Positions 1 through 6,171 of a stretch of DNA of 32,000 nt are shown here, one piece after another (position 1 is the stretch's first letter; the number at the start of each line of letters is the position of its first letter). The notes under the pieces were generated by a model, which saw only the letters and a list, made by a program, of their open reading frames with translations, searched no databases and had not been told where the DNA came from. A program made the translations under genes and the position numbers. Origin of the DNA: Candidatus Altimarinota bacterium. Its GTDB lineage: Bacteria; Patescibacteriota; Gracilibacteria; UBA1369. The DNA lies in contig JBAZYK010000005.1 of assembly GCA_041659405.1 (NCBI GenBank), positions 74,283-106,282 on the forward strand. Direction: 5' to 3'.

Positions 1-369
1 GTCCGTGAGGCCATGAAGAGCGACTGTGAAGTTTGGCTTTCCGGCGTGGCTTTGACCTTAAGTGAATTTGAAAATGTTGATGTTTTGCCTTCAAAGATTT
101 TCTTGTGTGGTGGCGGATCGTTGCTTCCGGAAATTAAAGAAGTGCTGGAAAGCCGTGACTGGACGCAAAAACTCCCCTTCCCTAAAAAACCACAGGTTAG
201 TTTTATGCAGCCAAAAATGATCAGCAATATGAGTGATGAGACCAAATTATTAAAGGATGTTCAGGACATTACACCGATGGCGCTGGCGAATATTGCGCTT
301 GAATATATGCAGGAGGAGCAGATTCTTTCGAAACTTCTTAAAAAAGTTGTACGATTAATGCAGATATAA
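1..369 (+). CDS. ftsA: C-terminal part of an FtsA-like actin-fold cell-division ATPase (5' end outside window)
   Basis: Frame 1 is open from base 1 (VREAMKSD...) to TAA at 367-369. The segment KIFLCGGGSLLPEI resembles the glycine-rich nucleotide-binding segment near the C-terminus of FtsA/actin-fold ATPases. The extreme C-terminus ILSKLLKKVVRLMQI is amphipathic, like the FtsA membrane-targeting helix. PilM-like is an alternative call. Confidence 0.55.
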   Translation, partial: VREAMKSDCEVWLSGVALTLSEFENVDVLPSKIFLCGGGSLLPEIKEVLESRDWTQKLPFPKKPQVSFMQPKMISNMSDETKLLKDVQDITPMALANIALEYMQEEQILSKLLKKVVRLMQI

Positions 370-374
370 AGGGG

Positions 375-459
375 GTTGGTCCTGCGAGGGAATTTCCTCC
401 TCGGACACAGGGCCCCTACCCCGGATGTCCGAGGAGGAAATTCCCTCGCAGGACCAACG
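375..459. repeat. Hairpin element copy 1: perfect 33-bp inverted repeat with a 19-nt GC-rich loop
   Basis: 375-407 GTTGGTCCTGCGAGGGAATTTCCTCCTCGGACA is the exact reverse complement of 427-459. The loop at 408-426 is CAGGGCCCCTACCCCGGAT. The 24-mer ACACAGGGCCCCTACCCCGGATGT (405-428) is identical to 2399-2422. Confidence 0.9.
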
Positions 460-481
460 AACATAATTAAAAAGTACATCA

Positions 482-2365
482 ATGGCACCTTTCAAGAAAA
501 ATTCGGCGAAAAGTTCTAAGGATTCTAAAAAAGAGGATCCAAAAATCATGGCTACTCGTCGGATTGGGAATACTGCCGATAAAGAAGAATCCGGGGTTGA
601 TGCCAGGGCTTTAAAGAGGCTGAATGCCAAAAAAGTCATTTATATAGAAATAGATGATGAAGTTACGCAGATTTACGACCGCCTGAAGCAGCTCAGAATG
701 AAAAATATATATATCGTGGCGCCAAAACGTGCGATTATTTTTCAGAGTATTATTAATTTGCGCATTCTTAAGCGAAAAGCGGAAGATCTTGGAAAAAATA
801 TTTATATAATTACCAATGATCTTAATGGAGTTCATTTGGCGACTCAAATTGGCTTAACCGTTTATGATAAGCTGGAAGGTCACGAACATCCAAGTCTGGT
901 TTCCGGTAAATTTCTTGAAGATCAACAGAATATTACGCCTTTAAAAGCCAGTATTAACGCGCTCGATGATGATGCTCCAACCCGACAGACCGAACGTAAA
1001 CTTTCGATTTCGGAAATGATCCGAACCGGAAAACGTAAAGGACTTGCCATTATCGCCAAAAATCTTAGTTTAAAAAAACAAAAAAAAGATGCTGCGAAAA
1101 AAGGTGATGATAAAGGAAAATTGGTTCTGGTCGCCCCAAACAGGCAGGCATTGATTGCTTTAATTGTGGTTAGTTTGATTATTTTGTTAACGATTACTTA
1201 CATTGCTCTGCCGGGTTCTACGCTTCACCTTACGCCAAAATCCAATGTATTAGAGACTTCCGTGAACATAATTTTGGCTGATGTGGATTTAAATCAGGGG
1301 GAACTGGACACGCATCCCGTTCATGAAATTCCAAGTTATACAATTACAACCACCATTAAAAAGGCCATGACTTATCAGGCAACCGGTAAAAACTTTCAGG
1401 GGCAGAACGCTACCGGAGTTATTACCGTAATTAATGCCAGCAACCAGCCTTGGCCGTTAATTGCCAATACGCGCTTCCAAACCAGTGAAAATCTGGTATT
1501 TAGGAGTCAAAAGTATGTAACGGTACCGGCCCAAAATGGCAATACCCCGGGGACAATTGATATTCCGGTTGTGGCTGACCCGCTGGATGCCATGAATCAG
1601 GTAATAGGAGAAAGAGGAAATGTTGGACCAACCAAATTCTTTTTACCGGGTCTTTCTGCGGACAACCAGAAGAAACTTTATGCGGAAAATAAGACGAATA
1701 TGACCGGTGGAAAAACCATTGTGAATAAACAAATAGCTAAAGAAGACTTGGCTGCGGCTCAAGCAAAAATGCAGGCTGATTTAAAGGCTTCCGCGCAGGT
1801 TGAGCTTCAATCCGTTATTAACAAACAAAACAATCAACAGAAGACAAATTTGGTGCTTTTAACTGATTCAAAAGCCATCCAGTCGGGTGATGCAAAGGTG
1901 ACGATTCCACCTAATCTGGAAGGGCAAAAACTGGATTCTTTTGATGTTCAGGGTGAAATTACGGTCAGTGGGGTGGCTTATGATCAGACGGAAATGATGA
2001 ATATGCTTAAATCAGAATTGAAATTAAAGAAGAATCCGGAAAAACGGTTGGTTCATATTGATGATAATTCCCTAACTTATCGTGTTGTGGATATAGACGC
2101 GGTTAATAAGAAGGTCAAAATAACCGCAACAATTAAAGGAATTGAAGAGTTCGAAATCAGTCCGGAAAAAGAAAATGGCGCCAGATTGATTAAGAAAATC
2201 AAGGAACATGTGGTTGGGAAGGATATTAAAGAGGCGCGCGATTATATTCAAAATCTGCCGGAAATTGATAAAGTTAAGGTTGATAGCTGGCCGGCTTGGG
2301 CGCCGACCATGCCAAGCGTGCCGGATAATATCCGTATTGATGTGGTTTCGGGGCAGGATAGTTAA
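482..2365 (+). CDS. Hypothetical single-pass membrane protein: charged N-terminal cytoplasmic domain, one TM helix, large beta-rich ectodomain
   Basis: 627-codon ORF from ATG to TAA. A hydrophobic segment ALIALIVVSLIILLTITYIAL lies around residue 225. The N-terminal module (IYIEIDDEVTQIYDRLK...IYIITND) and the ATGKNFQGQNATGVITVINAS stretch resemble widespread uncharacterised proteins of small-genome bacteria, as I recall them. Possible baseplate-J-like similarity is only a vague recollection. Confidence 0.8.
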   Translation: MAPFKKNSAKSSKDSKKEDPKIMATRRIGNTADKEESGVDARALKRLNAKKVIYIEIDDEVTQIYDRLKQLRMKNIYIVAPKRAIIFQSIINLRILKRKAEDLGKNIYIITNDLNGVHLATQIGLTVYDKLEGHEHPSLVSGKFLEDQQNITPLKASINALDDDAPTRQTERKLSISEMIRTGKRKGLAIIAKNLSLKKQKKDAAKKGDDKGKLVLVAPNRQALIALIVVSLIILLTITYIALPGSTLHLTPKSNVLETSVNIILADVDLNQGELDTHPVHEIPSYTITTTIKKAMTYQATGKNFQGQNATGVITVINASNQPWPLIANTRFQTSENLVFRSQKYVTVPAQNGNTPGTIDIPVVADPLDAMNQVIGERGNVGPTKFFLPGLSADNQKKLYAENKTNMTGGKTIVNKQIAKEDLAAAQAKMQADLKASAQVELQSVINKQNNQQKTNLVLLTDSKAIQSGDAKVTIPPNLEGQKLDSFDVQGEITVSGVAYDQTEMMNMLKSELKLKKNPEKRLVHIDDNSLTYRVVDIDAVNKKVKITATIKGIEEFEISPEKENGARLIKKIKEHVVGKDIKEARDYIQNLPEIDKVKVDSWPAWAPTMPSVPDNIRIDVVSGQDS

Positions 2366-2370
2366 GGGGC

Positions 2371-2450
2371 GTTCAGGGTTGTAGGAATATCCCTTCACAC
2401 ACAGGGCCCCTACCCCGGATGTGTTCAGGGATATTCCTACAACCCTGAAC
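2371..2450. repeat. Hairpin element copy 2: 24 bp + 2x2 mismatch + 4 bp stem carrying the same apex as copy 1
   Basis: 2371-2394 pairs with 2427-2450 (24 bp). 2395-2396 and 2425-2426 are mismatched. 2397-2400 pairs with 2421-2424. The apex at 2401-2420 is ACAGGGCCCCTACCCCGGAT. Confidence 0.9.
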
Positions 2451-2528
2451 ATAAGGATTTCCTTAATTTTTAATATCGGACCTAATTTAGCTATTTTATG
2501 GCTTGTTTTGCTTTTATGACCGCTACGC

Positions 2529-2556
2529 TTGACAAAATCGATCATTTGTGTAAAAT
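2529..2556 (+). promoter_or_regulatory. Sigma-70-like promoter candidate for the PKD-protein gene
   Basis: TTGACA at 2529-2534, a 16-nt spacer ending in TGTG, and TAAAAT at 2551-2556. It lies about 37 nt upstream of the ATG at 2593. AAGGA sits just before the ATG. Confidence 0.4.
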
Positions 2557-2592: not shown

Positions 2593-3690
2593 ATGAAACT
2601 AAGGAATCTAACAATTATCGGCTTACTTACACTACTGCTGCCGTCTGAAGCGACATTTGCCGCCTATAACAGCATGCTTGCGCCTACCAATTTTACGCCT
2701 GCGAATTACATTCAGCCGAGTTATGATCCTTTTTCTGCCAGCAATACCTATGCGCCAACTTTGCCGGAAGATCAACCGGATACTGCTCCCGTGGCCGCTT
2801 TTAATATTTACAATGGTGGGTTTTTCCAGAATAACAACGTGGGCACAACGGATACCGCCTTTACCTTTGATGGAAGCTCTTCTTATGATTCTGAAACCGA
2901 TTCTTCCCGCTTGGAAGTTCGTTGGGATTTTGAAAATGATGGCGTAATTGACGGTTATTTTTCGGTCATCAAAAGCATTAAACATACATTTAAAAAACCC
3001 GGAGTTTATCAGGTAAAAATGGAGGTTTTGGATCGTGCCGGAAATGTCTCCAAAGCCACCAAAACTGTAACCGTAGTGGCAAATACAGATCCGATTCCGG
3101 CATTTTCGTATACTCCTATAAGTGATACCAACAACACAATTTTTCAATTTGATACCCACGTTTCCAGAAGTGACCAGTTTGTGGCTTCAACTCTGCAATA
3201 TCGTTTTGACTGGAATGGCGACTCCAAATGGGACACAAAATATCAGGCAAAAACTATCTGGAATCATCTTTTTGACTCAGCAGGATCACACAATGTGATT
3301 ATGGAGGTAAAAGACCCGGGTGGTCATACTGCTAAGGTAAATAGGGCTATTTCTACTTTTGAAAATACCCCACCGGTTGCTTCTTTTGGAGTTTTTACCG
3401 GCACTTTTAGCAGCTATGAATTTAATGCGAAAGCTACGACAGACGCAGAAACTGCTCACTATCGTTTATTTTATCGCTGGGACTTTGAATATAGCGGCAC
3501 AAATGACATTATGTACAACACTTACGCCGGCAATACGGATCGTGTTTCTTACAATTATAAAACTCCCGGACATAAAATTGTGCGCCTGGAGGTAATGGAC
3601 GCATATGGCGCAAAATCCTATGCCTATGCCGAATTTGATGTTCCCTGGACTAAAGTGATGGCCCAAAATTTGATTGCGCCACTTAAGTAA
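2593..3690 (+). CDS. Secreted protein with three PKD-like domains
   Basis: The N-terminal signal-like peptide is MKLRNLTIIGLLTLLLPSEATFAAY. There are three roughly 90-aa repeats, each with a PKD-type signature: FTFDGSSSYD...RWDFENDG...PGVYQVKMEVLDRAGN, FQFD...RFDWNGD...GSHNVIMEVKDPGG, and EFNAKATTD...RWDFEYSG...PGHKIVRLEVMDAYG. Confidence 0.85.
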   Translation: MKLRNLTIIGLLTLLLPSEATFAAYNSMLAPTNFTPANYIQPSYDPFSASNTYAPTLPEDQPDTAPVAAFNIYNGGFFQNNNVGTTDTAFTFDGSSSYDSETDSSRLEVRWDFENDGVIDGYFSVIKSIKHTFKKPGVYQVKMEVLDRAGNVSKATKTVTVVANTDPIPAFSYTPISDTNNTIFQFDTHVSRSDQFVASTLQYRFDWNGDSKWDTKYQAKTIWNHLFDSAGSHNVIMEVKDPGGHTAKVNRAISTFENTPPVASFGVFTGTFSSYEFNAKATTDAETAHYRLFYRWDFEYSGTNDIMYNTYAGNTDRVSYNYKTPGHKIVRLEVMDAYGAKSYAYAEFDVPWTKVMAQNLIAPLK

Positions 3691-6094: not shown

Positions 6095-6171
6095 TGGTGG
6101 AGATGAGAGGATTCGAACCTCTGGCCTCAACAATGTCAATGTTGCGCTCTAACCAACTGAGCTACACCTCC
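6095..6171 (-). tRNA. tRNA-Val(GAC): tRNA-Val, anticodon GAC, genomically encoded CCA
   Basis: The reverse complement is GGAGGTGTAGCTCAGTTGGTTAGAGCGCAACATTGACATTGTTGAGGCCAGAGGTTCGAATCCTCTCATCTCCACCA (77 nt). It has a 7-bp acceptor stem (one G-T pair) and a D arm GCTC/GAGC. The anticodon stem is CAACA/TGTTG with loop TTGACAT. The T arm is AGAGG-TTCGAAT-CCTCT, the discriminator is A, and the 3' end is CCA. Confidence 0.95.

Follow-up and report, generated by a model that had tools for sequence, protein, structure and literature searches.

A hairpin repeat with an invariant tip, freely varying arms and fixed strand polarity in the operon spacers of a Candidatus Altimarinota bacterium

The second of two long hairpins in the window, the 32,000-nucleotide stretch of Candidatus Altimarinota DNA that was analysed, is on balance best explained as a non-autonomous mobile hairpin repeat, propagated via a single strand of fixed polarity, recognised by its tip and akin to REPINs and MITEs. 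The element is built of three parts: an invariant, GC-rich tip of 13-14 nt; a genome-specific junction with an inner stem of 5-7 bp, usually bounded by a 2x2 internal loop; and an outer stem of 24-28 bp in which the sequence is free and the pairing is kept. Every detectable copy retains the tip and the pairing, and the strand polarity of the element is fixed. Comparison of orthologous sites shows that whole hairpins have been inserted into the very short spacers of housekeeping operons, and that this happened independently in different lineages.

The hairpin under study (copy 2; Table 1) has arms of 31 nt that are 94% complementary and form 29 Watson-Crick pairs around 18 unpaired apex nucleotides, as established from the sequence and with a repeat finder. 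Its sole mismatch is a 2x2 TC/TC internal loop that separates 24 bp on the outside from 5 bp on the inside; an earlier, sequence-only reading of this DNA had the 24 bp and the 2x2 mismatch right and gave the inner stem as 4 bp. Calculated RNA folding energies for copy 2 are -55.2 kcal/mol on the plus strand and -62.0 kcal/mol on the minus strand, where the tip sequence is predicted to fold into a mini-helix of 5 bp, two of them G.U, capped by an AGGG tetraloop. In copy 1, located upstream, the usual TC/TC loop is now complementary and the stem is a perfect 33 bp. As had been reported, the two copies have in common an identical 24-nt stretch, ACACAGGGCCCCTACCCCGGATGT (405-428 in copy 1 and 2399-2422 in copy 2), and their arms are unlike each other at most positions. 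Also correct are the observations that both hairpins begin 5 nt past a TAA stop codon, after the G-rich spacers AGGGG (370-374) and GGGGC (2366-2370), and that exactly one gene lies between them. The 20-nt apex was absent from 100 shuffles of the window.

Table 1. Coordinates of the hairpins and neighbouring features in the window
Feature	Position	Strand	Details
Hairpin copy 2 (feature studied)	2371-2450	.	5' arm 2371-2401; apex 2402-2419; 3' arm 2420-2450
Conserved 2x2 internal loop of copy 2, 5' half (TC)	2395-2396		Partner TC at 2425-2426; tandem G.A/A.G pair on the complementary strand
Invariant 13-nt tip of copy 2, GGGCCCCTACCCC	2404-2416		Minus strand reads GGGGTAGGGGCCC
Hairpin copy 1	375-458	.	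Arms 375-407 / 426-458; apex 408-425; tip 410-422
ftsA, 3' end	1-369	+	Full gene G000:C5:73347-74651; Pfam PF14450 FtsA, E 1.5e-19 (full-length ORF); TAA 367-369
627-aa core gene between both hairpins	482-2365	+	Homologues in 25/25 relatives
Sigma-70-type near-consensus promoter, TTGACA-16-TAAAAT	2529-2556	+	11/12 consensus matches; serves next gene, outside the hairpin element
Downstream gene, PKD-domain protein	2593-3690	+	Pfam PF18911 and PF00801
tRNA gene	6098-6171	-	Rfam RF00005, 74 bits

The product of the gene that the two hairpins flank matches no Pfam family. In an Rfam scan of the window the tRNA alone reaches its gathering threshold, and the hairpins match no family; at permissive E-values they match microRNA-precursor models only, with 30-38 bits against thresholds of 57-144, matches that reflect generic long hairpins. 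With stems of 30-33 bp and no T-run or U-tract, the two do not have the form of intrinsic (Rho-independent) terminators, and a terminator scan of positions 250-2750 returned no terminator-like site. A promoter for independent transcription of the minus strand was likewise not found near the window copies. Downstream of the orthologue of the 627-aa gene, a relative of the same genus (G001) keeps a promoter-like motif of the form TTGACA-N-TAAAAT. The AT-rich spacer motif TAATTAGTAATT / AATTACTAATTA at 459-481 has 24 copies in the genome, upstream of many start codons. It occurs also in the hairpin-free ftsA spacer of G001 (locus ~130-155, minus strand) and is a native spacer or leader motif that lies outside the hairpin element.

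The genome-wide census that the sequence-only reading had proposed found the apex 28 times in this genome (G000; 1.51 Mb, 40% GC, 98.5% complete), whereas a reversed control was found 0 times. All of these copies, 26 full and two truncated, are intergenic, and each folds into a long hairpin. The 13-nt tip is identical in 27 of the 28, with one change in the remaining copy (C3:83915). When the census was repeated without the apex as query, by a scan for all long inverted repeats and a filter-free nhmmer profile search, the same copies were recovered, together with a few hairpins of the same scaffold that carry other tips (types B to E). From the profile search came the 28 copies and two tip-variant copies; nothing decayed, no solo arms and no larger element were detected in G000.

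Most of the copies lie within housekeeping operons. The hairpins nearly fill their spacers, leaving 1-26 nt on the side of the preceding gene and 13-30 nt on the side of the following one, and their gene neighbours include ftsA, ATP synthase gamma and beta, SSB, Hsp20, tuf, ribosomal proteins and rpoA. A single 32-kb tuf/ribosomal-protein/rpoA cluster holds 10 of the 28 (binomial p ~2e-10). At most loci other than the window the hairpins stand singly. With respect to the flanking genes, 11 copies are co-oriented and 16 opposite (the two truncated ones included), and one lies between divergent genes. The element as a whole is an inverted repeat, with terminal inverted repeats, and many copies start GTGTTCAG and end CTGAACAC. 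The flanks of 26 copies contain no direct repeat or target-site duplication and no conserved sequence, and are merely AT-rich. The 2x2 TC/TC loop is present in 21 of the 26 full copies, and also in copies from the genomes G006, G001, G091 and G126.

Hairpins that combine this scaffold (outer stem, TC/TC loop and inner stem of 5-6 bp) with a different tip were seen in G000 at C3:90942-91024, C18:4763-4843, C4:1080-1168, C4:2713-2803, C11:46852-46938, C5:48328-48416, C7:46392-46472 and C6:~96204-96237. The alternative tips are CAGGGCGCAACGGCGGA (type B), CAGTTCTCGGCTCACGCCTGCGAGG (type C), GGGCCCCCCAAGACCCC (type D) and GTCCTCGCTTTGCTGCGGGA (type E), and the difference between type B and the main type is confined to the central 8-9 bases. 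A truncated half-copy of the hairpin is found at C4:~2665-2690.

Beyond this genome, the 13-nt tip caps long hairpins in four other genera of the family, with arms and junctions that differ between genomes. A 13-mer search returned 13 such hairpins in G017; five are present in G006, three with the identical tip and two with one base changed, and one each in G001 and G014. Copy number across the family is accordingly patchy (28, 13, 5, 1, 1 and otherwise 0), and variant tips on the same scaffold occur in G091 and G126. The junction is constant among the copies of any one genome; comparisons across genomes show differences in the junction bases, in the inner stem, in the presence of the 2x2 loop and in the arms. 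The copies in G006, G017, G001 and G014 occupy gene junctions that are hairpin-free in G000, and this lack of orthology implies independent insertions. No hairpin capped by the tip turned up outside the family in a survey that covered 400 genomes of the class and 150 of the order. An exact 15-mer search of 40 relatives was blank because the last two bases of that query are specific to G000, and the 13- and 14-mer matches in other genomes rule out a species-specific family.

Viral sequences also contain the tip. Of 65 matches of the 14-mer AGGGCCCCTACCCC in viral contigs, just two are hairpin-capped, and each of these contigs, IMGVR_UViG_3300012973_000068 (~876-1045) and IMGVR_UViG_2061766007_000523 (~31-200), has one very long imperfect palindrome with this tip. 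Both are AT-rich, with an unpaired GAACCA on both arms; the arms of the two hairpins are related to each other and unrelated to those of G000, and the ORFs beside them have no PHROG match. The 15-mer gave 13 matches in public viral contigs, none of them at a hairpin tip. The 20-mer found one match in public genome contigs, outside any hairpin, in a Prevotella MAG (JAITVH010000139.1, locus ~1296-1315) in which 21 nt are identical to the G000 apex (CAGGGCCCCTACCCCGGATGT); about one such match is expected by chance in a collection of that size. Two related loci in another genome, G266:C7:~96302 and ~163324, with the sequence GGGGCCCCTACCCCA(C/G)AAAATCCGCT...ATTTT(G/C)TGGGGA, contain the 13-mer elsewhere than at the tip of a long hairpin. 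The two represent a separate small repeat, from a different family within the class, whose sequence coincidentally contains the 13-mer.

Five sites that are filled in G000, comprising both window sites and those on C2, C9 and C11, are empty at the orthologous positions of G001. There, the ftsA junction consists of TAG, a 24-nt AT-rich spacer and ATG, and no hairpin is found past the stop codon of the orthologue of the 627-aa gene. The ftsA junction is hairpin-free in nine further relatives as well. Searches across the order found homologues of the 627-aa gene in all 25 relatives covered (84% identity within the genus), and in those with an assembled junction the homologue lies 2-25 nt after ftsA with the hairpin absent. 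The empty orthologous sites imply that the entire hairpin, unusual outer arms included, was inserted. The C2, C9 and C11 sites of G001, which have no hairpin, rule out the possibility that the element landed in the loop of an existing terminator hairpin. The two window hairpins are independent insertions and the gene between them is no cassette. The sole match of the 20-mer apex in public metagenome contigs is a strain variant at 99.65% identity, in which both hairpins are unchanged. Look-ups by exact protein, aimed at strain polymorphism, yielded the same strain only, and its contigs break at the hairpins.

Across the 26 full copies, 21 of 22 stem pairs vary on both sides, with 144 compensated cells. 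Paired cells amount to 91.6%, as compared with 64.5% when partners are shuffled (none of 500 shuffles reaching 91.6%) and 34-46% when partners are slid. Complementarity is 0.92 between the arms of the same copy and 0.52 between arms of different copies. Between copies, pairwise identity falls from 0.97 in the apex to 0.55 in the arms, and the outermost positions are conserved least. These values bear out the earlier claims that the arms vary and stay self-complementary around a conserved apex, and that a conserved centre with variable arms is the reverse of the pattern in REP and attC sequences.

The individual changes suggest a mechanism for part of this covariation, as several of them are difficult to attribute to point mutations that arose independently. 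A TC-to-GA dinucleotide change, in either arm, has perfected the TC/TC loop in at least four copies, copy 1 of the window among them. In one G017 copy the junction AAAGTC has become TTAGGA, with five of six bases changed, and is now complementary to TCCGAA. Indels are mirrored on both arms. The closest pairs of copies differ by 144 two-arm and 46 one-arm changes, and several pairs have 4/4 to 6/6 of their changes compensated. Perfecting of several bases in one step, mirrored indels and the scarcity of one-arm intermediates together imply that part of the covariation is templated arm-to-arm correction of DNA, and the arm changes fit intra-hairpin templated correction, i.e. template switching on quasi-palindromes, a process established from mutagenesis work in E. 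coli. Copying of arms from elsewhere in the genome is ruled out, the only matches being two of 16 nt that are due to chance. Templated correction is not the sole force, because the 2x2 loop persists in most copies and stem mismatches at positions 6-7, 10 and 14 recur across many of them; nor is it the whole story, because the strand bias described below requires selection on one strand. Strong covariation in a palindromic DNA repeat is, alone, no proof of a functional RNA, since templated correction can produce it. The proposal of selection on a fold that displays the loop is supported by the census, the covariation and the strand asymmetry taken together, with the qualification that the covariation is not clean evidence of selection on RNA.

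Two tandem pairs were also observed in G000, at C6:58968-59137 and C6:77282-77425, with a near-identical full copy and ~25 nt of its flank at both. In each tandem this shared copy is joined to a different resident copy that is truncated 12-13 nt into its 3' arm, which indicates recombination, or joining, through the conserved core.

The polarity of the element is evident from folding of its two strands. In 44 of 46 copies the more stable fold belongs to the strand opposite the tip strand, with a mean advantage of 8.9 kcal/mol (Wilcoxon p ~1e-8). Of the full copies in G000 this is true of all 11 in sense orientation and all 14 in antisense orientation; elsewhere it is true of 18 of 20, both viral copies among them. 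The better fold arises because A:C mismatches of the tip strand become G.U/G.T on the other strand, because the TC/TC loop becomes tandem G.A/A.G there, and because the tip can form 5'-GGGGU AGGG GCCCU-3' with two G.U pairs; on the tip strand itself the tip makes 3 bp only. Counted from the pairing strings, isolated stem mismatches on the tip strand of the G000 copies are A:C at 16 distinct positions vs G:T at 3, and in G017 the corresponding numbers are 8 and 3. Four genera have G.U as the closing pair of the mini-helix and G006 has G:C; two G006 copies have U:A in place of the inner U.G. As the polarity is independent of the direction of neighbouring genes, it is a property of the element and not of a host transcript. 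The window copies are co-oriented with their genes, so the operon mRNA carries the weaker strand and the complement of the plus strand folds better; the weaker-strand hairpins in the mRNA are still very stable, at -55 kcal/mol (copy 2) and -74 kcal/mol (copy 1).

The main rival to the mobile-element reading is a role for the host at the level of RNA, which seems rather unlikely. Under this explanation the hairpins would punctuate the polycistronic mRNAs of highly expressed operons, serving as RNase III sites, barriers to 3'-exonucleases or weak terminators, and the tip would dock an RNA-binding protein. The tight placement between stop and start codons and the concentration in the ribosomal cluster, where nine of the ten copies have the better-folding strand in the mRNA, are consistent with such a role, as are an RNase III encoded in G000, the strand-favouring G.U pairs and tandem G.A that are typical of structured RNA, and the absence of decayed copies from the profile search. 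However, in 11 of the 25 orientable full copies, the two of the window among them, it is the weaker strand that enters the mRNA, yet all bottom-strand features are kept, the sites are non-orthologous between genera, and most relatives run the same operons hairpin-free. The absence of a U-tract, of a terminator-scan match, of a minus-strand promoter near the window copies and of an Rfam match also speaks against it. A strictly strand-specific fold is in addition what would be expected of a single-strand initiation signal (sso/ssi type), a phage-derived priming or primosome-loading site scattered in the chromosome. The ssoA-type single-strand origins of rolling-circle plasmids are strand-specific partial palindromes of diverse sequence that are active as single-stranded DNA and have a short conserved motif in the terminal loop (PMC8860593), a layout resembled by the present hairpins with their strand preference and conserved loop, and exactly one tip-capped hairpin is found in each of the two viral contigs. 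Yet ssoA is a single-copy plasmid signal with RSB and a CS-6 loop, whereas here the loop is GGGCCCCTACCCC / GGGGTAGGGGCCC, which differs from the CS-6 consensus, and the 28 chromosomal sites are clustered in operon spacers, unexpectedly for a replication signal. No Rep/HUH gene adjoins any copy examined, and by GC skew the better-folding strand is mostly the C-rich strand and not the presumed lagging-strand template, a weak test as the copies are clustered. An initiation signal is for these reasons improbable.

The remaining alternatives concern DNA rather than RNA or replication. The hairpins could be a functionless relic, with pairing maintained by template-switch correction alone, the core kept uniform by gene conversion alone, and no selection on the fold. 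The multi-base perfecting events, compensated indels, few one-arm intermediates and signs of recombination through the core all lend themselves to this explanation, which is nonetheless quite unlikely: strand-blind correction cannot yield the strand bias or the excess of A:C over G:T mismatches, and it should erase the 2x2 loop and the recurrent mismatches that most copies and several genera keep. Moreover, a tip that is identical in five genera and two viral contigs, all with differing surroundings, is beyond what gene conversion inside one genome could produce. A cassette boundary or attC-like recombination site, with the two hairpins delimiting a mobile gene cassette, is scarcely credible. 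Integron attC sites have conserved R boxes at their ends (RYYYAAC ... GTTRRRY) and a variable centre, mark the boundaries of cassettes in arrays, and need an integron integrase. The likeness consists in a dependence on fold over sequence, one active strand and the maintenance of unpaired bases in the stem, to which may be added the single gene between the two copies and the tyrosine recombinases and integron-like arrays elsewhere in G000. Against this, none of the conserved ends, cassette arrays and integron integrase applies to the hairpin element. Its ends, GTTCAG ... CTGAAC, are variable and in the order opposite to the R boxes while its centre is invariant; no recombinase lies close to the window hairpins, which form no attC array, and most other loci have single hairpins. 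A link to the integron-like attC sites of G000 was considered and rejected, as the array sites found near the C11 recombinase are unlike the hairpins in appearance, and that recombinase fails to co-vary with them. The cassette-like behaviour envisaged in the sequence-only reading is also contradicted by the relatives, in which the bracketed gene is core and sits beside ftsA without hairpins wherever the junction was assembled.

Relationships to known repeat families clarify in what respects the hairpin repeat is unusual. REPINs and REP sequences, mobilised by RAYT (Y1 HUH) proteins, are short extragenic repeats that form long single-strand hairpins in which compensatory changes are common, and REPINs are non-autonomous and persistent within a lineage, with copy number variable between relatives (Bertels & Rainey 2011, PMC3116915). 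The present family is similar in being an extragenic hairpin with compensatory changes. The layout, with free ends around an invariant centre, is the opposite of that of REPINs, which have conserved ends (REP) and a free interior; further differences are that G000 has no RAYT and that copy numbers are in the tens rather than hundreds. The Correia elements of Neisseria and the ERIC/IRU elements of enterobacteria are imperfect palindromes of ~100 nt that are found in either orientation in transcribed operon spacers. Their co-transcribed hairpins can be processed (by RNase III for Correia) or alter mRNA stability, and we know of no cognate transposase for either. They are conserved over their whole length or in terminal repeats, Correia having TA target duplications; by contrast, and comparing by description only, the hairpins discussed here have a conserved 13-nt tip only, no target duplication and one favoured strand. 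Like MITEs, they have terminal inverted repeats and filled versus empty orthologous sites. Unlike MITEs, they lack target-site duplications, and a search of G000 revealed no autonomous parent that shares their termini. The hairpin family is one of REPIN/MITE-type repeats in reverse architecture, not a new kind of system.

Candidates for the enzyme that moves the repeat were sought in the same genomes. Y1/RAYT (Pfam Y1_Tnp, PF01797) has no match in G000, at 98.5% completeness, and control genomes were positive. TnpB was found in none of 36 family genomes, IS110 in neither G000 nor G017, and reverse transcriptase in no hairpin-bearing genome. An array-type tyrosine recombinase was rejected as the mover, since many genomes without hairpins have it and G006 and G014 do not. 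The genes flanking copies in G006, G017 and the viral contigs include no nuclease or transposase. It is conceivable, if doubtful, that the hairpins belong to an undescribed class of strand-specific single-stranded element in which CPR chromosomes and phage-like contigs share a G-rich mini-helix and the mover is unrelated to Y1/RAYT, TnpB-associated systems, IS110 and integron integrases. The defining feature of such a class may be the invariant mini-helix predicted on the folding strand.

If the hairpin is a mobile repeat as preferred here, selection would act on a single strand that folds with a fixed polarity, the simplest candidate being an intermediate of copying or transposition made of single-stranded DNA, and a putative protein would recognise the element by the displayed tip. 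The arms would need pairing only, which selection and intra-hairpin templated correction presumably maintain between them, and ectopic recombination via the shared core would help to keep the core uniform within a genome. As a side effect, the window hairpins probably affect the processing or stability of the operon mRNA.

Small palindromic repeats of the REP, REPIN, ERIC and Correia types are common, but to our knowledge their spread is understood only where a RAYT is present, and the ultra-small genomes of the CPR hold almost no other mobile DNA. The reverse architecture, the lack of a known transposase, the strand-specific fold and a tip common to phage-like contigs make this family a clean system in which to look for a new hairpin-recognising activity. 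As the hairpins sit within ribosomal-protein, ATP-synthase and ftsA operons, they probably influence the expression of core genes. There is also a practical consequence, in that the hairpin repeats fragment assemblies of the organism: assemblies of the same strain that were made independently break inside or beside hairpins, and one contig, of Logan SRR6484324, stops at G000 C3:84465.

Other repeats were encountered in G000 in the course of this work. A second, unrelated family has four copies, at C2:145484(+), C3:77890(+), C5:54182(-) and C10:32609(-), each a three-hairpin module centred on CCGGCC(A/T)CTACGCCGG with a CATCGCGNAAGCGAT hairpin downstream. In addition, C4:1-700 contains 18 TAGACA/TGTCTA hexamers, densely placed around and inside an ORF at 360-1052; this cluster holds 8 of the 32 GTAGACA occurrences in G000 and several TGTCTATAGACA palindromes, and looks like iterons or the operator array of a regulator.
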